Positions 2,501 through 43,636 of a stretch of DNA of 64,000 nt are shown one piece after another (positions within the stretch are counted from its first letter, which is position 1; every line of letters begins with the position of its first letter). Source of the DNA: a virus (taxonomy: Duplodnaviria; Heunggongvirae; Uroviricota; Caudoviricetes; Crassvirales); the IMG/VR virus record IMGVR_UViG_3300031952_000007, positions 14,504 through 78,503 of that record; one strand, given 5' to 3'. The notes below the pieces were generated by a model that did no database searches, was not told the origin of the DNA, and saw only the letters and a list, made by a program, of their open reading frames with translations. The position numbers and the translations under genes are program-made.

Positions 2501-2505
2501 AATTT

Positions 2506-2853
2506 CTAGTTTTTCTTTATTAAAATAATTTGTCTGTGTTCTAAATCATAAAATCTTGTATGATTATGATCCTCTGGAGTAAATAGATAAACTGTTTCTT
2601 TGTACGTACGAGTTGCACCATTATATACGTATGTTACATTTTCTTCTTCTCTTCTTGTAGAACATTTTACAGCTTTATATATTGGTTGCTGTGTTCTCCA
2701 ATGTAATTTATCACCAGTGACTGGTTTCTTTATTACTCTCAAATATTTAAAATGAGATTGGCAGGAGATTAATATTTCATCTCCCACCTCCAAATCTTGA
2801 ATTTTTACTTCCTGCATAATTTTTAATTTTAGAATGGTAGTTTTTCTAACCAA
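2506..2853 (-). CDS. hypothetical protein
   Basis: 115-aa ORF, co-oriented, overlaps the UDG-like gene start by 25 nt. Confidence 0.4.
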   Translation of the reverse strand: MVRKTTILKLKIMQEVKIQDLEVGDEILISCQSHFKYLRVIKKPVTGDKLHWRTQQPIYKAVKCSTRREEENVTYVYNGATRTYKETVYLFTPEDHNHTRFYDLEHRQIILIKKN

Positions 2854-3545
2854 TCTATGTGAAAATTATTATTACCTTTTAAAATCTTGTTCACTTTACC
2901 AAATACACCCTCTGTATCCCATTCTGCACCTTTGTATGAAGCAGAAGCTGGATGACTTACAGCAAATGACCAACTCATTGGTTGTACATATTTCTGATAT
3001 TTAGCAGCATCTTTACCAAGAAAGATAATAGGAGCTCCTGTATATGCCAAAACTTCTTCTAATAGATATTTGGTAAATGGTTCCCAGAGATCAATATGTG
3101 AACCTGCTTTGTTTATTTCTGTTGTCAGTGCTGCATTAAGCATAAGTACACCTTGTGATGCCAAATAACTAACATTAGCACTCTTGAATGTTTCTAGAGA
3201 TAATCCTTCATACAATTCTCTTTCTATACCTCCATAAAATTGTTGTAATGATGGTTGTAATTCTCCTGTATTACTACAGCCCATTAACAATCCATCAGCT
3301 ACAGGTTCTCCATGCTTCATTGAGTGATAGGGGCACATACCCATAATAATCACTTTAACCTCATCTAGTGGTGTCGCTTTGAAACATTTATATACATTAC
3401 ATGAAAGAGGAGCAATTGTCTTGCCCCTCTTACTTTCATGCTTCAGAAATTTATAGATGTTATCACAAGCTTCACTCTCAATGAATGGCTGTATTTTATT
3501 ATGCCAGCTCTCATGAAACTGATCTTTAAACTTCTCAAAATCCAT
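2829..3545 (-). CDS. family-1 uracil-DNA glycosylase (UNG) homolog with non-canonical active-site residues
   Basis: Colinear with UNG over its whole length: VKVIIMGMCPYH vs VKVVILGQDPYH, GVLMLNAALT vs GVLLLNAVLT, IIFLGKDAAKY vs VFLLWGSYAQKK, VSHPASAS vs TAHPSPLS, FHIDW vs PIDW. Catalytic Gln-Asp is replaced by Met-Cys and the wedge Leu by Ala, while the Asn and His are kept. Confidence 0.75.
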   Translation of the reverse strand: MDFEKFKDQFHESWHNKIQPFIESEACDNIYKFLKHESKRGKTIAPLSCNVYKCFKATPLDEVKVIIMGMCPYHSMKHGEPVADGLLMGCSNTGELQPSLQQFYGGIERELYEGLSLETFKSANVSYLASQGVLMLNAALTTEINKAGSHIDLWEPFTKYLLEEVLAYTGAPIIFLGKDAAKYQKYVQPMSWSFAVSHPASASYKGAEWDTEGVFGKVNKILKGNNNFHIDWLEKLPF

Positions 3546-7000: not shown

Positions 7001-7213
7001 TTAATCCTTCGAAGATACAACAATTTTGTCAGATTTCAAAATTGTTGTCTTAGTATCCATAAGGTTTGGATCTTTAATAAGTTGCTCATAAAGATACTGC
7101 ACTTCATCAAGATTTTTACCAAAACTACTGTCAATCATCTTACCACCTATAGTGACATAATAATAAGCTGGCTCATTAAATTCTTCTCTTTTAACTAATT
7201 CAATTTTCTTCAT
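7001..7213 (-). CDS. hypothetical protein (70 aa)
   Basis: Small co-oriented ORF with a 4-nt overlap with the helicase exon. Confidence 0.4.
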   Translation of the reverse strand: MKKIELVKREEFNEPAYYYVTIGGKMIDSSFGKNLDEVQYLYEQLIKDPNLMDTKTTILKSDKIVVSSKD

Positions 7214-7983
7214 ACATACTTAATTTTTGATTGATTTAACATTGATAGACTCTCTACAATTTTCTTTAGTTCTGGTTTCTCATTCAAACATAAAATGTGC
7301 AAGTCAGCAATCTTTCCATGATAGTCTAATTTAATAGCTCTATTTAGGATTTGAGAACTCTCTTCAGCATTATATGTAAAGTTGGTGAGGATTACAGAAT
7401 CAAGATCTGGATAGGTTACACCAATCTTTCCCATTGCTGCTAATGCAAGATGATTTATCTCTCCATTCTTGAAGTCTTGAAAATTACCATCATTCTTAGA
7501 CTTACTATGATAGGAAGGACAACCAACCTCATCAGCAACCTTTGCAAGACCTGTGAACACTAACACTCGTTTATCTGACAAATCGTTTAGAAGAGCCTTT
7601 AAATAGCTCATTTTGGCAATTGATGATTGAGAGAGTCTGTTTCTAGCTAATGCTAAATGCATAAAGTTTCTACCTTCTCTTTTCAACTTTTCAATCACCC
7701 AAGAATAACCATCATATTTCTGTTTCTCTGTCTTTTCTTTACCATTCTTGTCTATTGTAACTTTCTTTGTGTCTAGATTGATAAGATGTACAGAGATTTG
7801 ATAGTCTGCTAATATACCATCCTCAATTCCTTGATCTGTGGTGTAGCTTCCTATCTCTTTAATCTCTTCCCATTGCTCAATAGTTTCTGATGATACAGTT
7901 CCTGATAGACACAATGTGTACGTACAATTATCAATTATCTCTTTACACAATTCTCTTTCATTCTCACTTGCACTGTGGAATTC
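7210..7983 (-). CDS. SF2 helicase, 3' exon (helicase C-terminal domain)
   Basis: Frame is open upstream of the annotated TTG 'start' (7950) back to 7983, giving EFHSASENERE-LCKEIID... Carries helicase motifs III (LSGT), IV (VLVFTGL) and V/VI (ILTNFTYNAEESSQILNRAIKL). Joins exon 1 to restore the DExH box. Confidence 0.65.
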   Translation of the reverse strand, partial: EFHSASENERELCKEIIDNCTYTLCLSGTVSSETIEQWEEIKEIGSYTTDQGIEDGILADYQISVHLINLDTKKVTIDKNGKEKTEKQKYDGYSWVIEKLKREGRNFMHLALARNRLSQSSIAKMSYLKALLNDLSDKRVLVFTGLAKVADEVGCPSYHSKSKNDGNFQDFKNGEINHLALAAMGKIGVTYPDLDSVILTNFTYNAEESSQILNRAIKLDYHGKIADLHILCLNEKPELKKIVESLSMLNQSKIKYV

Positions 7984-9044
7984 CGTTTATGTTAACTTTT
8001 AGTTTCCTAAAAGACCAGACTATATCTTATTACTAAATTAAAATTTTTTGTCAGACCAATAATAACCTCCACATTTACCTTTTCTTTTAATAGCCTCAAA
8101 AATTCCTGATGGATATTTACAAGGATTTATTATATTAAAAGCTTCAGTAACAGAAGAAAAAACTTGTAATAAATTTTTATTGCAATCATACATATATACA
8201 ATTTTAGATTTATTTATATAACTCTTGTTATAATTATTAGATAAATAATCTTTTTCATATAAAATTATATGATTTCCTGCAGTTATATTTGTCATCTTTT
8301 TTGAAAGAACATTGCTAATACTAGTGATTTTAACATTAAGGTTTTTAGCACACTCCCCTATAGATGAGAAAGTGTTTATATAATCATAATTTAAAGATAA
8401 TACTACAACTTTTTTTTTATGACCATCCGAAGATCTTTGTAAACTATCTTTAGTGCGATCTACTATTAATCCTTTTCCACCTTCTCTAATATTAGTTAAA
8501 TTATTATAGTTATTTATCCAGTATTTTTCTTTTTCTTCCCAATTGTTTTTATCACATTCTTCAATTAATGTAATAATAGGATACAAGTTTTGTTTTTTAA
8601 GAGTTTTTATCCAATTACAAACATGAGTTTTTACATTTTTTGTAAAAGCTGCACATTTATGTTGACTTAATCTTTGAGACAACCTTGATACTGTAACACC
8701 AACATATCTAATTTCCTTTGTTATAGGATTAGATAAACTATAAATTTTATATGTTCTTTCCATAATAGTATTATAATGAATTTCACTACAATACTACATA
8801 AATTAATTTAATAATCCAAGCGTTTCATGTTAAATAATTATTAACATTACTCTACTCCCTTTATACAAAATATTGTATAGGTTTCGATAGTCGTTGAACC
8901 TTATTCCCATTAGGAATCTTGGCTGCTGATTGTCCAATTCTTATCTCTTTTACTATAATATAGTCATTACTGCTATATGGAGTGTATAAGACTCTAAGGA
9001 GTTTCCAGTCAATTAACTTGGTTTAAAGTGAACTTATATAATCA
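7984..9044 (-). mobile_element. group I intron (IA2-like) inside the SF2 helicase gene, carrying a GIY-YIG HEG
   Basis: Minus-strand core elements: P-like AAUUGACUGGAAACUCC (+8992..9017), Q AAUCAGCAGCCAAG (+8920..8938), R GUUCAACGACUA (+8888..8903), S AAGAUAUAGUCUGG (+8010..8030). P6 and P9 hairpins present. The internal guide sequence GUUCAC can pair with the exon end GUGGAU with a U.G wobble at the 5' splice site. The 3' end is a G in ...ACG|GAAUUC. Confidence 0.7.
8038..8763 (-). CDS. GIY-YIG homing endonuclease (intron-encoded)
   Basis: N-terminal YKIYSLSNPITKEIRYVGVT (GIY...YVG), then R..H, EKYWINNY and NIREGG motifs. Lies between R and S of intron 1 (P8 position). Confidence 0.8.
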   Translation of the reverse strand: MERTYKIYSLSNPITKEIRYVGVTVSRLSQRLSQHKCAAFTKNVKTHVCNWIKTLKKQNLYPIITLIEECDKNNWEEKEKYWINNYNNLTNIREGGKGLIVDRTKDSLQRSSDGHKKKVVVLSLNYDYINTFSSIGECAKNLNVKITSISNVLSKKMTNITAGNHIILYEKDYLSNNYNKSYINKSKIVYMYDCNKNLLQVFSSVTEAFNIINPCKYPSGIFEAIKRKGKCGGYYWSDKKF

Positions 9045-9350
9045 ATCCACTATAAAGAAATCAAACTCGTATTCTGTATATTTCTTTACAGAACTAAAGT
9101 TTACATATGTAATGTTGGGATTATTATATCCCCACAGCTCACATTCATTCATCCAGGTATCTCTAAGCTTGTTGTCTGGATAGGCAATTAGTAATGTACA
9201 ATCATAATCAAACTTCTTTTTAAGAATCTCAATTGTGGTTTTACATTTACCAAACCTCATTGCAAGATTTAGATATCCAGACTTATTCTTTTTGTAGAAT
9301 GTCAATGATTTCTTTACAAATTCATCCTGCAGTTTGTCTTGTACATTCAT
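9045..9350 (-). CDS. SF2 helicase, 5' exon (motifs I-II)
   Basis: Walker A-like AMRFGKCKTT; ends ...DFFIVD immediately before the intron. Spliced product reads ...FFIVD|EFHSAS..., i.e. the DExH box is completed across the junction. Confidence 0.65.
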
Positions 9351-9610
9351 TATACGTATTTTATAACATTACCTTCTGCATCTTTTAATGCAGTTACACT
9401 AAACAAACCATCATAATGCGTCATGATATTAGCATGAATACCATTTAAATCTGCTCCTGTTTGTACTCCCCACATCTGTAAGAACATATAGAATTCCTGT
9501 TGCCCTAACATTTGTTTATGTTTAGAAGCATCAAAGTTCTCTCTATAATGTTCATAGAGAATATTCGTGGGTGCATTACCTTTTAAGTGTATATAAGTTT
9601 CTTTGTCCAT
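9350..9610 (-). CDS. hypothetical protein (86 aa)
   Basis: Co-oriented ORF; ATGA overlap with helicase exon 1. Confidence 0.45.
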   Translation of the reverse strand: MDKETYIHLKGNAPTNILYEHYRENFDASKHKQMLGQQEFYMFLQMWGVQTGADLNGIHANIMTHYDGLFSVTALKDAEGNVIKYV

Positions 9611-9782
9611 TGTTAGTTATTATAAATGTAGCTGACCAAAATAACCATTCGAAATTCACAGCAATATAATCATCCACTCTATCTATGTTGTTAAGGATGC
9701 TAATTGTTGGAATTAATACCACTTGCCAAAATTTATCATTTTTACTTGGGAGGGTATTAAATGTTCCTACTTCTAATTTCAT
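9576..9782 (-). CDS. hypothetical protein (68 aa)
   Basis: Small ORF overlapping the previous one by 35 nt; hydrophobic centre. Confidence 0.35.
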   Translation of the reverse strand: MKLEVGTFNTLPSKNDKFWQVVLIPTISILNNIDRVDDYIAVNFEWLFWSATFIITNNGQRNLYTLKR

Positions 9783-9789
9783 ATTCTTT

Positions 9790-10854
9790 TTATTTGTTTA
9801 GAAAAAATGTTTTGTTTGTTACAGATGCATAATATGAATCTGTCATGTCCTTCTTTTTAGGTAGTTCTTTGAATATACCTAGTTGACCAAGAAAACCAAG
9901 TCCCACTCTAAGATCATCTGATCCATAAGAGTTCTTAATTAGTCTTAATGAACGAAAGTATTTAGCACCGAATTCATCTCTAAGCTTGTTAAGATCATAT
10001 CCAGAAGGATCTGGAACCTTATATCTCATAGGATCAAATAGAGCTAATACAACATCTGCGTCATTTTGTGTAGAAGAACTCTCACTGAAATCCTCTAGCT
10101 GTGGTTCTACATCACCATTTTTTATCCTAATAGGATTAGATATAGATCTGTTAAACTGACTCACAACAACAGGAGTGTAACCAAAGAAATCTCTTGCATA
10201 TCTGAGCTCATCACTCATCTTATCAATAGCTTCCTTCTTAGTTGGTTGATCTTTTGTTGTTTTCAATAGACCAATGTGATCTATAACAACAATAGTAACT
10301 TCGTTCTCATTATTGGGAATATAACGTTTGTTGTATTTGTCTATCTCTTCTATACGACCATTCTGTAAAGCGTGTTCTTTTAGCTCTTTAGCTATACCTA
10401 CAGGATTCTCTGGACCATCTATTACAGTGATCACCTCTTTCATTTGATTAGCATAATCTTCATACATAAGAAATAAGTCATGTTCATCACTAGTCATCTT
10501 ATCTGTCCAACCCAACAGCTTGTTCACTGGAATAATCACACCATGATCTATAAAGATCTTACGAGATATCCACTTTGCAAGCTTATAAGTTCCACTTCTC
10601 TCCATAGAGCGATAGATGATCCTTAGCTTAACATCAGATTTATTCTTATCAGAGATGTACCAATCAAATGGATTAAGAACATAAGCATCATCAATAAAAG
10701 ATGTTTTGCCTGAACCAGTGTTACCACCTATAAGAGTGTACATACCTTTTCTAATACCTATGTGCTTATCAAGTCTATTGAATCCCATAGGAACACTATC
10801 GTTTCTACCAGCAATACCTTTTGCTACTTCTGCTTTTAATTGTTCAAAACTCAT
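9790..10854 (-). CDS. DnaB-family replicative DNA helicase (RecA-fold C-terminal domain)
   Basis: Walker A GGNTGSGKTSF, Walker B VIDHIGLL, SQFNR and DADVVLALF motifs in DnaB/T7 gp4-helicase order. Confidence 0.7.
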   Translation of the reverse strand: MSFEQLKAEVAKGIAGRNDSVPMGFNRLDKHIGIRKGMYTLIGGNTGSGKTSFIDDAYVLNPFDWYISDKNKSDVKLRIIYRSMERSGTYKLAKWISRKIFIDHGVIIPVNKLLGWTDKMTSDEHDLFLMYEDYANQMKEVITVIDGPENPVGIAKELKEHALQNGRIEEIDKYNKRYIPNNENEVTIVVIDHIGLLKTTKDQPTKKEAIDKMSDELRYARDFFGYTPVVVSQFNRSISNPIRIKNGDVEPQLEDFSESSSTQNDADVVLALFDPMRYKVPDPSGYDLNKLRDEFGAKYFRSLRLIKNSYGSDDLRVGLGFLGQLGIFKELPKKKDMTDSYYASVTNKTFFLNK

Positions 10855-10864
10855 AATGTTAATG

Positions 10865-11497
10865 TTAAATGTCTGTACTGCCTTCTATTATTTGATGTGT
10901 CTCAATTTTAACACCCTCTTTAATCAACTCAATAAATGGCTCAAAAGTTCTTTGATTAAGATAGGTGAGTGAATTCTGCATGTATGTCATTCTATTCACT
11001 CCTGTCTTTACAGAACTTTCTTTCTTCTGAACCACCTCATAAGCCAATGCTTCAACCAATTCTTCAATGGTGTATTCACCCTCTTCAAGAATCTTATCAA
11101 GTTTAATCTTACAGTCATCTTTCTTTGCTCTTAGATTTCTACTACCTGAAAATGATTTACCACTATGTACAAAAGTATCAGTGCCTGGATATGTCTTCCA
11201 CCAGAGAGAGAATGCATCATCAGTTGGTTTTTTCTTGATGATGACATCCTCTTCATCTTGTGTTTCTAGAAACTTAATAAGCTCTTTACCAGACAATGTA
11301 AGCTTTCCTTCTGTTGTAACTAACCCCTTTCTATATATTCCCTGATAGATCGCTTCTATCTTAGGAACCTCTTGACATAACACTTTTACATCTGCTTGTT
11401 CCTCAACAATCAAGTTAAGGATAAATAACATGTCTAAGGTATATCCTTTTCTTTGAATTTCTCTAAAATGGGAGAACGTTAGCTTTGATAGATCCAT
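10865..11497 (-). CDS. hypothetical protein (210 aa)
   Basis: Co-oriented ORF directly downstream of the DnaB-like gene. Confidence 0.5.
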   Translation of the reverse strand: MDLSKLTFSHFREIQRKGYTLDMLFILNLIVEEQADVKVLCQEVPKIEAIYQGIYRKGLVTTEGKLTLSGKELIKFLETQDEEDVIIKKKPTDDAFSLWWKTYPGTDTFVHSGKSFSGSRNLRAKKDDCKIKLDKILEEGEYTIEELVEALAYEVVQKKESSVKTGVNRMTYMQNSLTYLNQRTFEPFIELIKEGVKIETHQIIEGSTDI

Positions 11498-11678
11498 TTT
11501 CTAATATTTTATCCTTGTCTATTACTATAATCTTTGCAGGTTTTCTATTTATGTAATCGTAATGCTCCTGCTCAATCCTTAATTGCTCTTCTAGCAAATA
11601 CATCTCATACTTTAGGTGTTCATGTTCCCAATCTTCATTTCTCATCTTCTTTGTAATTTTCATTAAATAAATCTTCAC
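11463..11678 (-). CDS. hypothetical protein (71 aa)
   Basis: Small ORF, 35-nt overlap with the downstream gene. Confidence 0.35.
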   Translation of the reverse strand: MKIYLMKITKKMRNEDWEHEHLKYEMYLLEEQLRIEQEHYDYINRKPAKIIVIDKDKILENGSIKANVLPF

Positions 11679-11805
11679 CTTTGTAATCTGGATGTTCTTT
11701 TTGCATCTTATCTATTCCTCTTACCCATAATGCTGCTATTGGTGCTGTAATCACCACTATTATTCCTATCACTTGTAATTTGTTTAAAATTGTTAATAAC
11801 ATAAT

Positions 11806-12057
11806 TTAATCTTTTACTCTTAAACCAAACTGAAGATCGAACCAGTCGAATGTACTTCTTGCTTTGGTTTTGTTAAACTTAAATACTTTTTGTAACACAG
11901 GAATAGCATAAGCTTTGAATTGGTCATGCTGTTCCTGTGTAAGTGTCCAATTGAAGAACCACATGTCATCTTTGAGAGCTTCTGCCATAGTTTTACCAAC
12001 CATTTTTAGTTGGTATTCCATTAAATGATCTGAAACGTTTAATCTGTTAATTGCCAT
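11806..12057 (-). CDS. hypothetical protein (83 aa)
   Basis: Small co-oriented ORF. Confidence 0.45.
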   Translation of the reverse strand: MAINRLNVSDHLMEYQLKMVGKTMAEALKDDMWFFNWTLTQEQHDQFKAYAIPVLQKVFKFNKTKARSTFDWFDLQFGLRVKD

Positions 12058-12102
12058 TGTATATATATTTTATATACAAAGATACGACAATTAATTATTT
12101 TA

Positions 12103-13083
12103 TTAAAACATGGAGATTTGATTTGGATTTACAACCACTTTTCTCTTCTTACCTTCTGTCTGAATCTTACTAACTATTGTATTACACTTCTCAATGTAAT
12201 ATTCATAATTGATATTATCCATAGGATGATCTTTAGTTAAGTGGTTACAAACTGTGCACATCCACTCACCAGCTTCCACTTGTGATATTGGTGGAGCATT
12301 AGTTACACAGCTATCGTTTTTTACTTTAAGAAGCTTCACTCCTTTATTTGATACATAATAACGAATGAGTTTATTATAGATAAACTTCTCACCTGTGCCT
12401 CTAACTATACCCTCATAATGGAAATCTCTCGAAGCTTTTTGTCTTAACGCAAAGTCATAGATGTTAGAATGATTCCTAACAGTATGCTCAATAGGTATAT
12501 TATTAACAAAATATTGTTCGAGAGCCAATGGTACAATCCTGGCTGATTTGTTTTTATGTAATTCAAAATCTGTGAGGAAATCCCCTTTCTTTTTAATTTC
12601 GCCATCTGTTTTAATTGCTAAGTAGTCATTAACTGTTGAGAATATAATCTTTTGATAGTCTGTTCTTTCCAATTCATAACTTGTCAGCTCTTGCCACCAA
12701 GTATTAATTGAATTCATTAGAGCTAAGTCTGTCTTTTTAACCATTATAGTTACACCATCTGTATTAGCAGATATAACATGAATATTATTAGTTTCATACT
12801 TCTCAATCAACATCATTAGACTCAACTCACCAGTGATACAAGTGAACATTGTAAGTTGCTTATCATAAATCCAGCTCTGCATGTCAGAACTCTTGCCATA
12901 AACACTGTTTACAGCTAATTTAAGAGCACCTACAATACCCTTGATCTTCTTATCCTTCTTAGCTAATGGTTTAAGCTCCAACCTCTTATCAAACATTTGC
13001 TTGTATCCATTAAGAAACTCTTTACCTAGATGTCCTGGATATTGCTCATTGTTAATGATGATGGCTGGATAGTATGCATCCCA
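12103..13083 (-). CDS. family-B DNA polymerase, 3' exon (polymerase motifs A-part, B, C)
   Basis: KLAVNSVYGK (Kx3NSxYG, motif B) and ISANTDGVTIM (DTD-type motif C). The annotated start is a TTG; the sequence WDAYYPAIII at the exon start completes motif A. Exon boundary is approximate (+/-7 nt). Confidence 0.7.
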   Translation of the reverse strand, partial: WDAYYPAIIINNEQYPGHLGKEFLNGYKQMFDKRLELKPLAKKDKKIKGIVGALKLAVNSVYGKSSDMQSWIYDKQLTMFTCITGELSLMMLIEKYETNNIHVISANTDGVTIMVKKTDLALMNSINTWWQELTSYELERTDYQKIIFSTVNDYLAIKTDGEIKKKGDFLTDFELHKNKSARIVPLALEQYFVNNIPIEHTVRNHSNIYDFALRQKASRDFHYEGIVRGTGEKFIYNKLIRYYVSNKGVKLLKVKNDSCVTNAPPISQVEAGEWMCTVCNHLTKDHPMDNINYEYYIEKCNTIVSKIQTEGKKRKVVVNPNQISMF

Positions 13084-14041
13084 GCCTCTGTAATCTTTCA
13101 ATTACAGCTGGACTATATCATCATTTAACTTTTAATTCTTTTTCCCAAATAAACCCATACATTGAAGGTTTGTTACCTGAACACACTGAATATATTTGTT
13201 GCCATTTATAAGAAGGATTTATTTCAGTTATTTCTTTTACTGAACCCCATTTTCTTATAAACTGTCTATCTTTTGTGTACTGATTGATATAATATTTAAC
13301 AGTTGCTTCTGAAACTTTTTTTGCCATTTCTTTAGTAGCCTCTGGATTATCTTTCCAATAAGTATGACTAACTTTTAGTCTTTCTTTTGGATCTTTATAT
13401 CTATTAATCTGAGCTTCACTGAGTTTTTTTCTTGTTTCTTTTGAAACAATGCAACTAGTTTCTGAATCTAATCTAATATTATATCCTTTGTCTCTATTAG
13501 TACATTTATAAACTCTTTGCCAATATAATTCTCGTTCCTTTAACTGGTCTAATTGTACAAATTCTATTACAAAATATTCAAAGTTTTCTCTTCCGTATTT
13601 ATGCCAAGCATTTATAAAATGGTCATTTTCATCTTTACTTCTTTTATTAAGAAGATTAATGTGTTGTCTGATTCTTCTATAAATACATTTAGCTTTTCCA
13701 ATATAAACTTTGCTATTTGTTTTATTTCTTATACAATATATTCCACTTTGGTCTAAATGTTCTTTTCTATTCAATTTCATGCTACAAATATATGTAATTA
13801 CATGGATAGAACCAAGACACTTATATTAATTAATTGTTAAATGTTCCCTGTTTAGTCTCTGAACCTTGATCTATTTCACTATAGACCCTTGGCTGCGGAT
13901 TGTCCAATCTTAATCTTTTTTACCATACCTGAGTAATTACTTCAGCCATTATATGTATTTCTACTATAACTTGGTAGATTAAGCTCTAAGGAGATCCCCG
14001 TCAATTTAAGGAATTTTAGTTACGCCATAGTATTAACGAAA
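13084..14041 (-). mobile_element. group I intron inside the DNA polymerase gene, carrying a GIY-YIG HEG
   Basis: Minus-strand P AAAUUGACGGGGAUCUCC (+13985..14010), Q AAUCCGCAGCCAAGGG, R GUUCAGAGACUA, S GAUGAUAUAGUCCAG (+13110..13123) and a P9 hairpin (+13088..13107). The heptamer TGGGATG occurs at both exon edges, so the exact splice point is ambiguous within 7 nt. Confidence 0.65.
13121..13780 (-). CDS. GIY-YIG homing endonuclease (intron-encoded)
   Basis: SGIYCIRNKTNSKVYIGKA (GIY...YIG), then R..H, FEYFVIE and ELYW motifs. The stop codon overlaps the S element of intron 2. Confidence 0.8.
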   Translation of the reverse strand: MKLNRKEHLDQSGIYCIRNKTNSKVYIGKAKCIYRRIRQHINLLNKRSKDENDHFINAWHKYGRENFEYFVIEFVQLDQLKERELYWQRVYKCTNRDKGYNIRLDSETSCIVSKETRKKLSEAQINRYKDPKERLKVSHTYWKDNPEATKEMAKKVSEATVKYYINQYTKDRQFIRKWGSVKEITEINPSYKWQQIYSVCSGNKPSMYGFIWEKELKVK

Positions 14042-15020
14042 CATCCCAATCAATGATTTCATACTCATCATCAGCATCAAATGTTTTAGGCTTGTTCTCT
14101 GTATGAAGACCACCTTTCATGAAAGAATACACATTATTATAAAAGTTTATGCTCTCTTTAAAATCATCCATCATCTTAAGCTTAACCTTCTTAATCTTTT
14201 TCAAGAAGTCTTTTAGCTGTGGAGTTTCAAACACTACATAATCAGCAATACAATGTCTAACGAAGATTTCCTTCCTGAACTTACCTTTTTTTGGTAATTG
14301 ACTGTATTTGATGTTCCTCTCTTGACAATAGAACTTCTTAATCATCTCATCACCAATCTTACTGTCAGAATAATTCAAACATGGAATATTAAACTCTTCT
14401 TGAATGTCCTGTCTAAGTTGTATCTGATTGTTTCCTTTGTATAAAGGATGTTCACAGTCACCAATAGTAATCTTGTAGAACTCATAAGTGGCCATAACAT
14501 CATTCCTACAATAGTCTTTAGTCATTTGAATTTCTTCATCTGTCATATCAACCTTTGTATGATGAATAGGCATCTCTTCAATGTTCTCAAGATCCATCTC
14601 AAACTCCAGTCTCTTTAGACTCACCATACGATTCTTATTATCGTAGTGGTTCACCTTGAATACATCAATTTGTTTAAGACTAAGATCAGCTTCTCTGTAT
14701 TTAGGCATTACATCATAATTAGCATCATGAATAACATCTCCTGCATTAACAGCAATCTTAGCACAAATATCAAGATAGCTTAAAGAACCCCATTCTTCAT
14801 AGCTTTTAAGGATGAATTCAATCACTTGACTGTCAAACCTAAGATTGTTATACCCAACCCAATAATGGTCCTTATAAGCCTCTGTGAACCTCACAAAGCT
14901 ATCAAGATTATTAGCAAGCTTACTCACTTCAAACTCAAAATATATGTCTGTTTTTACATCATAAACTCCTACAAGAAATAGTTCTTGCATAGTTTCTATG
15001 TCAAATATTAATACTTTCAT
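14042..15020 (-). CDS. family-B DNA polymerase, 5' exon (3'-5' exonuclease domain)
   Basis: Exo I LIFDIET, Exo II YNNLRFDSQVIEF, Exo III YCRNDVMATYEFY. Ends ...YEIIDW(D) at the intron; inferred spliced junction is ...EIIDWDAYYPAIII (motif A, DxxSLYPSII-like). Confidence 0.7.
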
Positions 15021-15213
15021 AACTTTTCTTACTTGGGTCTACAAAGGTAACACCTTTTGTGATAATTTCAACTAATGTTGAGTATTCTTTTGAACGTAAA
15101 ACACCTTCTAAATTCTCGTTATTCCAATAGTCTACATAAAGTTCTCTTGGAATCGCATTCCATAATCCCTTATAGAAATTATAATGAAATACATAGCCAT
15201 ACAATTTATCCAT
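15001..15213 (-). CDS. hypothetical protein (70 aa)
   Basis: Small co-oriented ORF. Confidence 0.4.
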   Translation of the reverse strand: MDKLYGYVFHYNFYKGLWNAIPRELYVDYWNNENLEGVLRSKEYSTLVEIITKGVTFVDPSKKSYESINI

Positions 15214-15224
15214 ATTAATTTGTT

Positions 15225-15527
15225 TTATAAAGTTTCCTTATTTGGAAACTCTTTTTTATAATCTACTTCCCAAACATTTGCTTTTTGTACAGTTGGAATA
15301 CCTTCCAAACCCATAAAACTCTTAACTTCATATGAAATTGTTCCAACAAAATCACTGCCTCCATATTTATGTTCATAAGGCTTCCATTCTAATCTTTTAC
15401 CAGTGTTATTGTATTCTATTGTTGCTCCATAATAATTATCAGTGATGTAAAACACACCTTCTAATGTATCTGCTGCACCTATTGGTTGATTATCATCAGC
15501 ATCTGTAATTACATATACTACTTGCAT
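15225..15527 (-). CDS. hypothetical protein (100 aa)
   Basis: Co-oriented ORF. Confidence 0.5.
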   Translation of the reverse strand: MQVVYVITDADDNQPIGAADTLEGVFYITDNYYGATIEYNNTGKRLEWKPYEHKYGGSDFVGTISYEVKSFMGLEGIPTVQKANVWEVDYKKEFPNKETL

Positions 15528-15546
15528 TATTTCTTGTTTTTGTTAA

Positions 15547-15879
15547 TTATAATTTTCTTTCTGATTCCCATTCTGATATAACAAATTCTAATTTAAGCTT
15601 TGCCAAATTCCATTTCTTAGTTCTCCATGCTTGAGCTTGAAATCCACCACTACCAGAAATCCATCCTATATCTGCATGTTCTGTGTTGTCTGGATCTGTA
15701 GCTTGTTCAATAGCACTGTGTAAGTTACGAGTGGCACATTGTACTAATTCTTTACGAGTGGGTGTGTCTTTACTTCCAGCCCATCTCCAATTTAAATCAT
15801 ACATTACTTTTACCACCTTATCAAAATCAAAATTCTCAATGATTTGATCTATCATTTCTTGCTGTGTGTATTTCTTCAT
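15547..15879 (-). CDS. hypothetical protein (110 aa)
   Basis: Co-oriented ORF. Confidence 0.5.
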   Translation of the reverse strand: MKKYTQQEMIDQIIENFDFDKVVKVMYDLNWRWAGSKDTPTRKELVQCATRNLHSAIEQATDPDNTEHADIGWISGSGGFQAQAWRTKKWNLAKLKLEFVISEWESERKL

Positions 15880-16070
15880 AAGTTTTCTATCTCTTGTTTT
15901 ACATCAAACCAATAATCATCATTAATAACATAACCACTCTCTGGAATTGCTTTTATTATCTCATCTATTGCTATCAATACACAATCTTTGGCTTTTCTCT
16001 TGCTTTCTATGTATGTAAGAAGCTCATCGTATTTTATTAATAGTTCTACTGCTTTCTCTTTTGCTGTCAT
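15876..16070 (-). CDS. hypothetical protein (64 aa)
   Basis: ATGA overlap with the upstream gene. Confidence 0.45.
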   Translation of the reverse strand: MTAKEKAVELLIKYDELLTYIESKRKAKDCVLIAIDEIIKAIPESGYVINDDYWFDVKQEIENL

Positions 16071-16072
16071 AA

Positions 16073-16312
16073 CTAATCTTTTTTAAATGTTTCTTGATAA
16101 AACTGTTCTCCACAATTTTCTTCATCAATCATTGGAGATTGATTAATATATCCATTATACCAAGCATTTATTATCTCTTGATTGTGCATTACTTTTGCTT
16201 GCTCAAATATATTAAATTGAACTATTGTGCTTTTTCTTTCTATATCTTTAATAAGACGGTAATAGTGTATTGATTTTTTTAATTCATTTTCTAACCATTC
16301 TACTGATGTCAT
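16073..16312 (-). CDS. hypothetical protein (79 aa), paralog of 16309..16488
   Basis: N-terminus MTSVEWLENELKK matches the neighbouring small ORF (MTAIEWLEEQL). Confidence 0.5.
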   Translation of the reverse strand: MTSVEWLENELKKSIHYYRLIKDIERKSTIVQFNIFEQAKVMHNQEIINAWYNGYINQSPMIDEENCGEQFYQETFKKD

Positions 16313-16488
16313 AATTCTTTTTTATATTTCAGTTTATAATATTGTTCACCTGTTTCTGCTAAAAATCCCCATGTAGCAGCATCTGTTATCTGTTCTTTTT
16401 CTTTCTCTTTAGCTTCTTTGATTTCACTGTACATACTATTCTTAATACGTATAGGTAATTGTTCTTCTAACCATTCAATTGCTGTCAT
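16309..16488 (-). CDS. hypothetical protein (59 aa), tandem paralog
   Basis: Unlisted ORF (below the 60-aa cutoff): ATG at 16488, MTAIEWLEEQLPIRIKNSMYSEIKEAKEKEKEQITDAATWGFLAETGEQYYKLKYKKEL, stop overlapping the ATG of 16312 (ATGA). Confidence 0.4.
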   Translation of the reverse strand: MTAIEWLEEQLPIRIKNSMYSEIKEAKEKEKEQITDAATWGFLAETGEQYYKLKYKKEL

Positions 16489-16507
16489 GTTTTTATATTT
16501 TAATTTT

Positions 16508-16551
16508 AACTTGGTCCCAACTTAGTCCCAACTTGGTGCCAACTTAGTGCT
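16508..16551. repeat. four tandem 11-bp direct repeats AACTT(G/A)GT(C/G)CC
   Basis: aacttggtccc / aacttagtccc / aacttggtgcc / aacttagtgc read directly in the sequence, in the intergenic region between 16488 and 16647. Confidence 0.8.
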
Positions 16552-16646
16552 TTATACTTCATAGTAAGAATGTAAGATTGAAACTAACTGGAAGTATAGA
16601 AAACCATACTAACACTTAAAGGCTTAAGTGAAAATATAACTGGTAA

Positions 16647-16847
16647 TTAGCTACTCAAATTGTCTTGTTTTGCTACTTTTAAAGAACAATCTTCACAATA
16701 TTGTGGATCTAGATGTCCATTACCTCTTGCAAAATTAGCTTCTTCATCTGTAAATTCAAACCCCACCTTAATTATCTTACTGCATTTTATGTTGGAGCAT
16801 AAAATTGCTAAATGTCCACTATTCCATTTCACTCTTGCTTTCTCCAT
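16647..16847 (-). CDS. small zinc-ribbon protein (66 aa)
   Basis: Two Cys pairs, CSNIKC and CEDC, in a 66-aa ORF. Confidence 0.45.
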   Translation of the reverse strand: MEKARVKWNSGHLAILCSNIKCSKIIKVGFEFTDEEANFARGNGHLDPQYCEDCSLKVAKQDNLSS

Positions 16848-16932
16848 AACTTATAAGTTTAAAATGTTAATTAATTAGTTAACCCAAAAGATAACAAAAA
16901 TGGGTTACATCTTTACGATATAACTTAAAATG

Positions 16933-17002
16933 CAGTTAGGATGTGAATCGAACACACTATCTCCCTTATGATCAGTTGCATTATCCAACATGCTCCCTAA
17001 CT
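16933..17002 (-). ncRNA. tRNA-like element (possible degenerate tRNA)
   Basis: Minus strand has a perfect 7-bp acceptor pairing (AGUUAGG / CCUAACU), a D-arm GCAU-GUUGGAUA-AUGC, and a canonical T-arm GUGUG-UUCGAUU-CACAU. No canonical anticodon stem could be built by eye. Confidence 0.2.
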
Positions 17003-17144
17003 ATATGCAACTAATACCCCTGTAGTTGCCACATGCTAACTTACGATTTAGCGAGATAAGTGTGCTTCGTAATCCTTTTTGATTAGCTATCTCAAGGCAA
17101 TTAGAGAGGCATTCTCTGTCTTTCGATCCTCTGGCCAATAGAGG

Positions 17145-17405
17145 CTAATTTATTCCAAATAGAAACTTAAAACATGATTTATAAATAAACCATTTACCTT
17201 TTAATGGTTTATCCCAATTGTAATTTCTATCTAGCTTATGATATGATGTTTCTAAGAAATCATCTTCCCATGCTTCTTTAGAAACAGCAAAATCTATAAA
17301 TGCCATTTCTAATATTACTTCATAATGGAAATAATATCCCAAAAACCATCCTTCAGCTTCATAAGGAGATTCAACAGTTGGTTTTTTTCTCCAATATATA
17401 ATCAT
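17145..17405 (-). CDS. hypothetical protein (86 aa)
   Basis: Co-oriented ORF, ATGA overlap with the upstream ORF. Confidence 0.45.
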   Translation of the reverse strand: MIIYWRKKPTVESPYEAEGWFLGYYFHYEVILEMAFIDFAVSKEAWEDDFLETSYHKLDRNYNWDKPLKGKWFIYKSCFKFLFGIN

Positions 17406-17680
17406 TTTGTTTCTTTTACAAATCTGAATGCAACAAGTCTATTGTTGTATTCAAATCTACGTTTATTAATAGGGTTTAAACTGTTCATCATCACTTCATA
17501 ACTAACCTTTACAGTTTTCATAGCTGAAGTGATAGATGGTAGGACAATCTCCTCTTTAGTATCTATAAAGATCATTCTGATCTCTCTAGAATTGTCATAA
17601 GTCACTTTGTTCATTGCTTCTAGTTTTAAATTAATAATGTGGAGGTGCAGGGAGTCGCATAATGTGGATATCTTAAACAA
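17402..17680 (-). CDS. hypothetical protein; probably the 3' exon of an intron-interrupted gene
   Basis: Annotated start is TTG. The frame stays open upstream to 17716, immediately after the S element of intron 3. Confidence 0.4.
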   Translation of the reverse strand: MFKISTLCDSLHLHIINLKLEAMNKVTYDNSREIRMIFIDTKEEIVLPSITSAMKTVKVSYEVMMNSLNPINKRRFEYNNRLVAFRFVKETK

Positions 17681-17716
17681 ACTTACAAAGAACCACTGCC
17701 CATGTTGCCATGAGGA

Positions 17717-17880
17717 TTAGACTATATCATCACCTGTTCTAGGTGCTGGACGCTTATTCCTGTTATTAAGAAGACTTTACTTCTCAGGTAGTCGTTGAAC
17801 CTTCTTAGAATGTATTCTAAGCTTGGCTGCTGATTGTCCTAACTTCACTGTTAGGAGTTCCAGCAATTCATCCAGTTTTT
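17717..17880 (-). mobile_element. group I intron core (third copy), no homing-endonuclease ORF
   Basis: Minus-strand P GAUGAAUUGCUGGAACUCC (+17854..17873), Q AAUCAGCAGCCAAGC (+17822..17839), P6 hairpin cuuagaaugcauucuaag, R GUUCAACGACUAC (+17789..17804), S GAUGAUAUAGUCUAAUC (+17720..17732). Elements are in the same order and near-identical in sequence to introns 1 and 2. Confidence 0.5.
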
Positions 17881-17966
17881 AATTAAGTATTCCTACTTAA
17901 TGGGTCCAATTCCCAAACCCTGGTCTTTTCAAGACCCAATAAATCCATTTTTACAAGCTTAGATCT

Positions 17967-17994
17967 TGTCACAATTATTTTAAAAATTGTGACA
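17967..17994. repeat. perfect 10-bp inverted repeat TGTCACAATT-n8-AATTGTGACA
   Basis: Read directly in the sequence; AT-only 8-bp spacer attttaaa; sits in the ~700-bp noncoding stretch between intron 3 and the terminator at 18346. Confidence 0.8.
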
Positions 17995-18345
17995 TAATCA
18001 GTAAGGGAAACTAACCAGTGGTATAAAAGCCACCAGCTCCACCATCTAGTTTATGAACTAGAAAACTAACTTTCTTTTTACACCATATAGTCTTAGGTGG
18101 TAGAATTCTCAAGATGTCTCAAGCTCTTACGATTGTAACTATTATGTTCCTTGGACAGTTACCATCCAGAGAACTACGCTGCTACAGCAACATTAGCAAA
18201 AGCCATGTTGATGATCATTGCACCTTCGTTCTGACGTACTAACTTAGAGTTGTCGTTTGATTGTTAATCAGTGTCTTTGAGTACTGACTGCCTCTTGCTT
18301 GTGAACCTACCTGATACATGAAAATCAAATGCCATACCACCCCCA

Positions 18346-18380
18346 TTTGAAAAAATATTTGCAGAGAATTTCTCCTCTGC
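18346..18380 (-). terminator. rho-independent terminator
   Basis: Minus strand: TTGCAGAG-gagaaatt-CTCTGCAA followed by atATTTTTTC, directly 3' of the stop at 18401. Confidence 0.6.
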
Positions 18381-41771: not shown

Positions 41772-43007
41772 ATGTCAGAAAATCAATCGTTGTTACAACA
41801 ACTTGAAGTACTATTGGGATGGAAAAAAAGTAAAAGTTTCTACGCTAAGAAACTAGGAATTACAGAATTTGAAGTAGATGATCTTTTAAAAGAATTAAAA
41901 GAATCAAAAGATATTAGAAATGAAGCAGAAGTTGCTACATACATTGGAGAACTAGAACAATGTCTTATTGAAATTAACAATGACAAGGGTACGTTAAAAT
42001 CTACATTAGAATCTACCTTTGAACCTAAGAGTGATATAGAATTAGCTAAGCTACATAAGATTGATTTAAACAAATACAAAATCTCTACTTATTGGAGCAA
42101 GTTAAAATCTAATGGTAAGTTTACATCTTCTGTATTCTGTATGTTAAAGAAACCTACAGATTATACAATGGAAGATTTCTCAAAGTTCTTAAACAGCTAT
42201 GTTCCAAAGACTTTACCCATTGCAAACATTCTAACACATGATGAGAATGAAGAGCTTGTAGATGTTGAAATATCAATCTCTGATTTTCATTTAGCTAAAA
42301 AAACTTTAGAGAAAGAATCAATCTTAGATAAAAAGATACAGTACATTCAAACGATTGATCAATTACTAAGTAGAGTTACAAGAACATTTGATATAAATAA
42401 AATTGTATTTCCAATATCAAATGATTTCTTTCATACAGATAATTACCAAAATCAAACAACAGCAGGTACACCACAAGATGTGTTAATATCTTATGATAAT
42501 GAATATGAAGAAGGGTTTGATCTTTTAGTTGAAGCTATTCGTATTTTGAAATCAGTGTGTAATGTTGTAGAAGTTGTATTAGTTCAAGGTAACCATGATA
42601 GAACTAAATCATTTTATTTAGCACATGCATTAGAAGTGTTCTTCAAGAATGATAAATCAATCATATTTCAAAGAGAACATTCTTCTACAAAAACTGTAGT
42701 GTTGGGAAATACATTTATTGGTTACCATCATGGGAACTGTAAAATAGAAACCCTACCATTATTATTTGCTACAGGAAAAAACAGCATTGATTTTGGTAAT
42801 GCTAAATACAGAGAAATCCATACAGGCGATAAACATCACTACATGGCTAAAGAAATTAAAGGTGTTAGAATTCAACAGATGCCTTCTCTTTCTGGTACAG
42901 ATAGATGGCATGAAGATAATCTTTATGTAAACAATATAAGAGCAGGACTTGCATTAGTTTATCATTATATAGATGGTAAGATTGCAGAGTACGAAAGTCG
43001 CATATGA
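41772..43007 (+). CDS. calcineurin-like metallophosphoesterase
   Basis: SDFH (DxH), LVQGNHDRT (GNHD), GYHHGN (GH) and HTGDKHH motifs in metallophosphatase order. Confidence 0.5.
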   Translation: MSENQSLLQQLEVLLGWKKSKSFYAKKLGITEFEVDDLLKELKESKDIRNEAEVATYIGELEQCLIEINNDKGTLKSTLESTFEPKSDIELAKLHKIDLNKYKISTYWSKLKSNGKFTSSVFCMLKKPTDYTMEDFSKFLNSYVPKTLPIANILTHDENEELVDVEISISDFHLAKKTLEKESILDKKIQYIQTIDQLLSRVTRTFDINKIVFPISNDFFHTDNYQNQTTAGTPQDVLISYDNEYEEGFDLLVEAIRILKSVCNVVEVVLVQGNHDRTKSFYLAHALEVFFKNDKSIIFQREHSSTKTVVLGNTFIGYHHGNCKIETLPLLFATGKNSIDFGNAKYREIHTGDKHHYMAKEIKGVRIQQMPSLSGTDRWHEDNLYVNNIRAGLALVYHYIDGKIAEYESRI

Positions 43008-43636
43008 AAAAATATTACTTATATAGACACATCAGACTTGATAAAAATGAACCTTTTTACATTGGTATAGGTAAAGTTTTAACTGAAGTAAAAGATTATT
43101 CAATAGATTCAGAACATTATAGAAGAGCATATTCTAAAAGAAATAGAAATAAATATTGGAACCATGTAGTAAATTTAACTAAATATTCTATAGAAATTTT
43201 ATTTGAATCGAATAATAAAAATTTAATAATACAAAAAGAAATTGAGTTTATAAAATTATATGGTAGAAAAGATTTAAAGTTAGGAACTTTAGTTAATATG
43301 ACAGACGGTGGAGAAGGAATAGAAGGAAATGTAAGATCAGAAGCTACGAAATTAAAACAATCTATTTCTGCAAAAATTGGTATGGTTGGTAAAAGAAAAG
43401 AAGAATGTATCAAAAGGTTAAGTGATTATCATTCTACAAAAGGAAGATTTGGTAAAGATCATCCTAGAACTTTTATGATTTATCAATATGATTTACAAAA
43501 TAATTTTATAAAAGAATGGGAAAGTTTATCTGATGTAAAAAGAATTTTAAATTATAATATACCTCATATATCTAATTGTATAAACAATAAAAGAAAAACA
43601 GCCTTTGGATTTAAGTGGTATAAAGAAAGAATATAA
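43004..43636 (+). CDS. free-standing GIY-YIG homing endonuclease
   Basis: YYLYRHIRLDKNEPFYIGIG (GIY...YIG), then R..Y and NMTDGGEG motifs, and a C-terminal AFGFKWY DNA-binding-like tail; ATGA overlap with the upstream gene. Confidence 0.75.
   Translation: MKKYYLYRHIRLDKNEPFYIGIGKVLTEVKDYSIDSEHYRRAYSKRNRNKYWNHVVNLTKYSIEILFESNNKNLIIQKEIEFIKLYGRKDLKLGTLVNMTDGGEGIEGNVRSEATKLKQSISAKIGMVGKRKEECIKRLSDYHSTKGRFGKDHPRTFMIYQYDLQNNFIKEWESLSDVKRILNYNIPHISNCINNKRKTAFGFKWYKERI

Follow-up and report, generated by a model that had tools for sequence, protein, structure and literature searches.

Three probably independent group I introns in a crAss-like phage, one of them in the T-loop of a predicted tmRNA gene

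In bacteria, the T-loop of transfer-messenger RNA (tmRNA) genes can be interrupted by group I introns, which were first found in Clostridium botulinum and are now known from 883 unique sequences at four subsites; subsite 3 was seen in the class Bacteroidia only, with 9 sequences in Bacteroidota, in a survey of 2025 (PMC11915505). Core genes of the Delta and Zeta crAss-like phages, that for the polymerase among them, contain group I introns, and homing endonucleases are numerous in these phages (Yutin et al. 2021, PMC7886860); these introns were identified through endonuclease domains, and tmRNA is not mentioned in that study. Here we report on a stretch of 64,000 nucleotides (nt) of a Crassvirales phage (IMG/VR record IMGVR_UViG_3300031952_000007, positions 14,504 to 78,503), referred to as the window, which carries three group I introns: intron 1 in a gene for a superfamily 2 (SF2) helicase, intron 2 in a DNA polymerase gene and intron 3 in a predicted tmRNA gene (Table 1). 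The introns and their host genes are on the minus strand, in the replication module. The sequence into which each intron is inserted is strongly conserved and critical for the function of the host gene, and very probably the three are of subgroup IA type and were acquired independently at conserved sites of a helicase, a polymerase and a phage tmRNA T-loop.

Like the bacterial tmRNA introns, intron 3 lies inside the 7-nt T-loop, follows a U at its 5' splice site and ends in G, and its predicted splicing would rebuild the T-arm as theirs does. With its insertion between UU and CGACU it occupies internucleotide position 3, which is subsite 3, the Bacteroidia one of the survey, but its gene belongs to a phage, whereas the surveyed introns are from bacterial chromosomes (PMC11915505). 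In the limited library of literature that we searched, phage tmRNA genes with an intron were not mentioned. Introns 1 and 2 are comparable to the td intron of phage T4 with its endonuclease I-TevI, to the introns of Twort-like Staphylococcus phages and to the polymerase introns of Bacillus phages, which are likewise of IA type and lie in conserved motifs of DNA metabolism. As in the td-like introns, an endonuclease with GIY-YIG and DNA-binding modules is encoded in a peripheral loop, the introns are distributed patchily among relatives, and the intron is more conserved than the exons. However, host genes and insertion sites differ from those of the td-like introns, and the open reading frames (ORFs) of the window introns are in L8. 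The intron-dense crAss-like phages belong to the same phage order as the window, which comes from an environmental relative with a polymerase of family phrog_1252. In Synechococcus phage S-PM2, the free-standing endonuclease F-CphI lies beside an ORF-less psbA intron, which shares 79% identity with intron 3 over ~160 nt.

Table 1. Features of the three intron loci and of the free-standing endonuclease gene (positions are those of the window)
Feature	Position	Strand	Description
Group I intron 1	9044..7984	minus	1061 nt, in SF2 helicase gene
Helicase exon 1	9045..9350	minus	ends ...FFIVD
Helicase exon 2	7210..7983	minus	begins EFHSASENE...
Intron-1 ORF	8038..8763	minus	241 amino acids (aa), divergent GIY-YIG with NUMOD1 modules
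Group I intron 2	14035..13077	minus	959 nt, in DNA polymerase gene
DNA polymerase exon 1	14036..15020	minus	ends ...DWDVS plus first base of next Ser codon
DNA polymerase exon 2	12103..13076	minus	begins (S)YYPAIIIN...
Intron-2 ORF	13121..13780	minus	219 aa, I-TevI-like GIY-YIG
Group I intron 3	17915..17658	minus	258 nt, ORF-less, in predicted tmRNA T-loop (between UU and CGACU)
Predicted tmRNA gene	17640-18344	minus	~447 nt spliced
tmRNA (ssrA) 5' exon	17916..18344	minus	acceptor GGGGGUG, putative pseudoknot and tag region, T-stem CAGGG plus UU
tmRNA 3' exon	17640..17657	minus	CGACU (T-loop), CCCUG (T-stem), CACCUCC (acceptor), discriminator A
Predicted tmRNA tag frame	18221..18174	minus	GCA AUG AUC ... 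GCA GCG UAG, read as AMIINMAFANVAVAA and stop
Hairpin and U-run	18350..18380	minus	GCAGAGGAGAAAUUCUCUGC AAAUAUUUUUU; closes upstream gene, 5 nt before tmRNA 5' end
Free-standing GIY-YIG/NUMOD1 gene	43004..43636	plus	210 aa, N-terminus YLYRH...PFYIGIG

When the whole window was scanned with the Rfam model RF00028 (gathering score 50), a single intron, intron 3, was found at the gathering threshold, with 96.1 bits (17972..17698). Introns 1 and 2 were missed because the ORF of ~0.7 kb in each splits the model. Indeed, when their 5' halves were scanned alone, P3 to P7 were matched in intron 1 (9015..8881; 33.7 bits, E 3e-7) as well as in intron 2 (14016..13843; 39.9 bits, E 4e-9). Moreover, the strings GGTTCARMGACTA (J6/7-P7), GATATAGTC (J8/7-P7') and GCAGCCAAG (P4'-P6) are present with zero mismatch at the three intron sites, and within the 64 kb they occur together at those sites only; the 3' elements of introns 1 and 2 (GAUAUAGUC and a P9 hairpin) were located by pattern search. 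In each of the three introns the 5' splice site is preceded by a U, paired with G in P1, and the last intron nucleotide is a G (U9045/G7984, U14036/G13077 and U17916/G17658). P1, P10, P8 and P7.1/P7.2 were read by hand from the sequence, and intron 3 was also folded; in the hand reading, P10 adjoins P1 in introns 2 and 3. Removal of the introns in silico restored a continuous conserved product in every case, as judged by intron-less alleles of helicase and polymerase and by alignment of the tmRNA with those of two relatives. The three group I introns are real, and their splicing is predicted from these features. A preliminary description of the window had listed three group I introns, two intron-borne GIY-YIG endonuclease genes and a free-standing one, and this inventory was borne out. 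Its three intron sites also stood, but the end that it gave for the third, 17880, falls inside intron 3, and the revised coordinates are those of Table 1.

The preliminary description had left out that intron 3 lies outside any protein gene. By its homology, the host of this intron is a previously unrecognized phage tmRNA gene. Deposited phage genomes contained no near relative of the window, and the comparison was made with seven metagenomic relatives (L003-L009), whose polymerases are ~74% identical to that of the window. Two of these have an intron-less tmRNA: that of L008 (467 nt, 821-1287) matched Rfam RF00023 with 83 bits and was not reported by ARAGORN, and that of L009 was called by ARAGORN, matched with 66 bits and has the same position relative to the polymerase gene as the predicted tmRNA of the window. 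A profile of the two tmRNAs matched the window by nhmmer from 18344 to 17916 (profile positions 1-446, E 1.2e-8), and the match stops exactly at the 5' splice site of intron 3. After splicing, the T-arm would be CAGGG-UUCGACU-CCCUG, and the 3' ends of the L008 and L009 tmRNAs align with the 3' exon; the acceptor stem would have 7 bp (GGGGGUG/CACCUCC) with a G3.U70 pair. A G3.U70 pair is the mark of alanine identity. Furthermore, the predicted tag of the window, AMIINMAFANVAVAA followed by a stop, aligns with that of L008, ASIIAMAFASEVALAA, also followed by a stop. The hairpin that closes the upstream gene is the strongest helix in the fold of the region upstream of intron 3.

Two contigs with 92-94% identity to the window (L011, L012) carry the same tmRNA plus intron. 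The first T-stem pair is C:G in the window and G:C in both contigs, a compensatory change across the 258-nt intron, and their tag differs from that of the window by one synonymous Ala codon and a different stop codon, and by nothing else. Because of the compensatory T-stem change and because the tag changes are only synonymous or stop-to-stop, the spliced tmRNA appears to be under purifying selection. The blindness of ARAGORN and of the Rfam tmRNA model to this gene is explained by intron 3, which splits the T-loop. L011 (93% identical) has six tRNA genes around the tmRNA-intron locus (232-399, 2102-3221), two of them directly upstream, where the window has a 70-aa ORF and the terminator hairpin; no tRNA genes were found in the window. 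Directly downstream of the tmRNA there are two small, overlapping ORFs (17402-17614, 70 aa; 17145-17405, 86 aa), which are 78-100% conserved in several metagenomic contigs and had no family match. A wcaG-like Rfam match at 18031-18110 (18.7 bits, threshold 42), inside the tmRNA pseudoknot region, is most likely due to chance.

The borders of intron 3 were taken from the tmRNA homology. P1 is GGGUU/GACCC with U.G at U17916, P10 is CGA/UUG, and P2, P3-P9 and P9.1 are present; the exon side of P1 and of P10 consists of T-arm bases. The minimum-free-energy fold recovered P1, P2, P3, P4-P6, P7.1/7.2, P8, P9 and P9.1 (z = -3.1). Compared with these borders, the Rfam hit (17698..17972) extends 57 nt into the 5' exon and ends 40 nt short of the 3' splice site; the model took the 57 nt of tmRNA exon as P1/P2, and the intron-less tmRNAs can be aligned with these nucleotides. 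Two copies of CCACATTAT in direct orientation (17667-17659 and 17642-17634) overlap the 3' end of intron 3 and the 3' end of the tmRNA.

Exact exon-intron junction patterns gave 0 matches in each of two scans of viral contigs, and metagenomes gave just one near-identical contig. A looser T-arm pattern matched more than 120 viral contigs and was uninformative. A scan of GTDB genomes gave 6 matches, all of them to the 19-mer alone; by our own estimate, ~9 are expected by chance. A second phage tmRNA with a T-loop intron, unannotated, was found in LR756501, a 735-kb "uncultured phage" (LR756501.1, 717476-719043; locus ~296-915). Its group I intron of 229 nt is 78% identical to intron 3 and lies between CAGGGTT and CGAATCCCTG-CGGGTCC-A. 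ARAGORN called a tmRNA of 387 nt only after the 229 nt had been removed in silico; the predicted 3' exon there is preceded by A instead of G, and the predicted junction is provisional.

Intron 1 splits the DExH Walker B motif (helicase motif II, DEFH) between D and EFH. Its P1 is GUGGAU/GUUCAC with U.G at U9045, the P7.1 and P7.2 hairpins are present, and the ORF is in loop L8 of a P8 of 12 bp. The spliced helicase of 359 aa matches Helicase_C, ResIII and DEAD, and DNA helicase families of PHROG. In two of the relatives (L007, L003) the helicase gene is uninterrupted and reads ...(I/V)IDEFHS(A/V)SENE, contiguous exactly at the junction of 9045 and 7983, and the intron-less DEFHS(A/V)SENE equals the product of the window spliced in silico.

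Intron 2 splits the polymerase motif DWDVS-SYYP after the first base of the codon for the second serine. P1 is CGU/GCG with U.G at U14036, P10 is CAUA/UAUG beside P1, and P7.1/P7.2 are missing; the ORF is in the loop of a P8 of 8 bp, and its stop codon overlaps the P8 3' strand. The spliced polymerase matches the DNA polymerase family PHROG 1252 (E 2e-133); the Pfam PolA and PolB families gave no match. All seven relatives are intron-less here and read DWDVSSYYPAIIIN, and the window is identical to this once U14036 is joined to C13076. The ORF ends visible in the preliminary description differ from the true junction in the polymerase gene, and an alignment with the polymerases of Rheinheimera and Acinetobacter phages showed ~12 surplus residues.

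From these structures we infer the following course of events. After transcription each ribozyme would fold, P1 would present the U.G pair at the 5' splice site, and each intron would excise itself via its terminal G. Excision would restore the frames of helicase and polymerase, and in the case of intron 3 it would rebuild the T-arm that is needed for a working, alanine-chargeable tmRNA. By analogy with I-TevI, homing would be driven by the endonucleases of introns 1 and 2, which would cleave the uninterrupted alleles of relatives that infect the same cell. Intron 3 has no endonuclease gene. Splicing, endonuclease activity and tmRNA function are all predictions from sequence.

The preliminary description had called the three introns closely related, with long identical strings, and had taken this as a sign of recent spread within the genome or of repeated homing from one source. 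The cores do have IA-type strings in common, including an identical run of 18 nt in introns 1 and 3 (GGACAATCAGCAGCCAAG), and in both introns 1 and 2 P5 is greatly extended and L8 contains an ORF, the L8 placement being read by hand. However, the longest exact common strings of the other pairs are only 11 nt (introns 1 and 2) and 10 nt (introns 2 and 3), and all of them are in the universally conserved P4'/P6, J6/7-P7 and J8/7-P7' segments. The common strings are thus generic group I consensus, which speaks against one family also by the preliminary description's own standard. In the pairwise alignments, the best high-scoring segment pairs between the introns were 54 nt with 80% identity (49 bits) for introns 1 and 2, 51 nt with 78% (42 bits) for introns 1 and 3 and 24 nt with 88% (31 bits) for introns 2 and 3, whereas matches of 139-169 nt with 111-133 bits linked each intron to one from an unrelated phage. 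These were the intron of Flavobacterium phage FpV4 (155 nt, 133 bits) and the polymerase intron of Bacillus Bequatrovirus (111 bits) for intron 1, the endolysin intron of Twortvirinae, phages of Staphylococcus (169 nt, 118 bits), for intron 2 and the S-PM2 psbA intron (163 nt, 123 bits) for intron 3. Similarity between any two of the cores does not exceed their similarity to introns of Flavobacterium, Bacillus, Staphylococcus and Synechococcus phages. Global pairwise identities of 75-80% were discarded, being inflated by permissive gap penalties. Moreover, P7.1/P7.2, as read from the sequence, are present in introns 1 and 3 and not in intron 2, the ORFs of introns 1 and 2 are only ~25% identical over roughly 100 residues (E 1.4), and the core of intron 2 is 92-95% identical in other phages, which points to an external source. 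A single family that spread recently in this genome, or homed repeatedly from one source, is on this evidence very unlikely, and the introns appear to have been acquired separately. Separate invasions are the usual way in which homing introns accumulate in phages.

Two other explanations concern what the introns interrupt and whether they still work. Intron 3 might interrupt the small protein gene 17402..17680 or belong to its 5' leader, the 430 nt upstream being an unrelated structured leader; one version would resemble the c-di-GMP-controlled intron of Clostridioides difficile, which is reportedly an arrangement of riboswitch plus ribozyme. A GTG at 17972, with U17963 then joined to 17685, is in frame with the downstream ORF (92 aa), the Rfam alignment puts a helix there, and the upstream region (17973..18345; G+C-richer, about 42% by eye) folds better than shuffles (z = -2.8). 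But the sequence read as a P1/P2 helix (17972..17916) has its homologue in the 3' part of intron-less tmRNAs, the tmRNA homology extends from 18344 to exactly 17916, the downstream gene is called from its own ATG (70 aa) in the homologues P0002-P0004, and in L010, a short contig, the upstream part is missing while the tmRNA 3' exon and the ORF are retained. Upstream of intron 3 there was no ORF, and Rfam matched no riboswitch family and gave only noise for other RNAs. The protein gene that we had considered as host was displaced by the tmRNA homology, and we regard either version, interrupted gene or leader, as extremely improbable.

It also seems improbable that at least one of the introns has decayed and lost its splicing, or that the tmRNA itself is such a relic and has ceased to function. 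The next findings weigh against the main reading or would speak for decay. Introns 1 and 2 stay below the Rfam gathering score with their partial matches, intron 1 is without a convincing P10, and intron 3 is without an endonuclease gene. The CCA is incompletely encoded at the tmRNA 3' end (ACA), ARAGORN called no tmRNA on the spliced construct, with a repaired CCA or with shifted junctions, the Rfam tmRNA model had no match on the 5' exon alone, and no SmpB gene was found among 62 window ORFs scanned. The ARAGORN result looks like an (unproven) limit of the tool with long tmRNAs (~450 nt), since the L008 tmRNA was also missed; long tmRNAs of this phage group seem to go undetected by it. Against decay, helicase and polymerase are core replication genes with frames intact on both sides and perfectly conserved junction motifs, so that failure to splice should be lethal; the intron 3 core reaches 96 bits; and the compensatory T-stem change and the synonymous or stop-to-stop tag changes described above point to purifying selection.

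All three ORFs listed in Table 1 belong to the GIY-YIG/NUMOD family, and cleavage by their products is predicted. The preliminary description had given their coordinates, two intron-borne and one free-standing, as found here. The intron-1 ORF matched Pfam NUMOD1 (3.6e-6) and PHROG 5123, "GIY-YIG homing endonuclease" (8e-6), and its full-length homologues with 46-53% identity carry PF01541 and PF07453; the ORF itself had no direct Pfam GIY-YIG match, and a PDB sequence search gave no GIY-YIG match. The intron-2 ORF matched Pfam GIY-YIG (PF01541; 1.8e-10), PHROG 314 (4e-25) and the catalytic domain of I-TevI (1mk0, 1ln0; E 2e-6), had no NUMOD match and has at least 196 homologues; those listed carry PF01541, and some sources give them the name "group I intron endonuclease". 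The two intron enzymes resemble I-TevI only remotely. The third ORF has a YLY...YIGIG motif and matched PHROG 314 (2.8e-11), in the same profile region as the intron-2 enzyme, and Pfam NUMOD1 (1.9e-4, just below the curated cut-off); direct GIY-YIG matches in Pfam or PDB were not found, and its GIY-YIG assignment is the weakest of the three. This gene is free-standing because it lies between complete genes for an exonuclease (phrog_704, 11-380/390) and a virion protein (phrog_9863, 1-232/236), and no intron motifs were found nearby. Aligned with each other, the three endonucleases gave partial alignments with 23-28% identity, and no close kinship was apparent in this comparison, which the preliminary description had proposed as a check.

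Intron 2 with its endonuclease gene was found at the same polymerase site in three other metagenomic phages (L153-L155). The intron core is 92-95% and the ORF 84-86% identical to the window at the nucleotide level, and the polymerase exons are only 71-78% identical; the intron is absent from L003-L009, which are equally diverged. On these sequence comparisons, intron 2 bears the signature of recent horizontal homing, and because copies with 92-95% identical cores are found in other phages, its source is probably external.

Of intron 1, only identical copies were found elsewhere. Homologues of its endonuclease with 50-57% identity are free-standing in L148, L150, L151 and L152, and in all four relatives the gene is directly upstream of, and overlaps, an intact helicase gene, whereas in the window the same endonuclease family is intron-borne. 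The helicase of L148 (2501-4370) is 37.5% identical to that of the window over the full length, without intron motifs. There is reportedly a route, described by Bonocora and Shub, by which a free-standing endonuclease becomes part of a mobile intron at its target gene. The pattern of intron 1 fits a move of the endonuclease into an intron at the target gene, and the direction of the move could be either way. In L003 (6363-8326), a LAGLIDADG gene is just upstream of the intact helicase gene; in the relatives, endonuclease genes recur at this position, which is a hot spot for them.

In L010, the stretch 599-898 preserves the end of intron 3 (~20 nt), then the 3' exon of the tmRNA and the 70-aa ORF that follows it, and upstream, on the opposite strand, this contig has an EndoVII/HNH-type gene (20-571, minus; phrog_3322, 3.5e-24). 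It may represent an endonuclease-bearing variant of intron 3 with the insertion in P9.1.

The element kinds described here are already known; new are the unrecognized intron-split tmRNA gene and the defined allele pairs. One expanding intron family is to be replaced by three separate invasions of three conserved sites. Furthermore, the tmRNA gene is added to the phage annotation, from which standard tools miss it owing to the T-loop intron. For three genes, alleles with and without the intron can be paired between the window and its relatives, and one endonuclease family is represented by a free-standing and an intron-borne member; both sets could serve as substrates for homing experiments. 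Bacteroidota are the hosts of crAss-like phages (PMC7886860). A lineage of subsite-3 tmRNA introns in phages of Bacteroidota, with phages as reservoir or vector and with the helicase intron as an "after" state, is, taken as a set of linked ideas, possible but tentative. If true, phages would be a reservoir or vector of subsite-3 introns that were reported so far only from Bacteroidia genomes, and ARAGORN-based phage annotation would miss intron-split tmRNA genes systematically. Should phages commonly have such genes, viromes would contain more tmRNAs than are now counted, and the origin of the Bacteroidia-restricted subsite would become testable. The helicase intron may be the natural "after" state of a free-standing GIY-YIG endonuclease that entered an intron at its own target gene.

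The window has a G+C content of ~31% and a strand switch near 24 kb, and its ORFs matched the Crassvirus major capsid protein, the muzzle protein and tail ring proteins 1, 2 and 3/4 (Pfam). Among 62 further window ORFs scanned, no other homing-endonuclease families were found, and a search by core motifs gave no further introns in the window and none in L003-L009. The preliminary description had considered the load of introns and endonucleases unusually high for 64 kb. Since the window carries crAss proteins and crAss-like phages reach up to 14 introns per genome (PMC7886860), this load is ordinary.

The sole stretch of the region with similarity to deposited phages at the DNA level is 7063-7293, which spans the helicase 3' end and the ORF 7001-7213; it is 76% identical to Flavobacterium psychrophilum phages, where it is labelled hypothetical protein or homing endonuclease. 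An 11-nt unit (AACTTGGTCCC and variants) is repeated 3.5 times in tandem at 16508-16548, where small early-region genes are separated by a gap free of ORFs (16489-16646); the repeats could be iterons or an operator.

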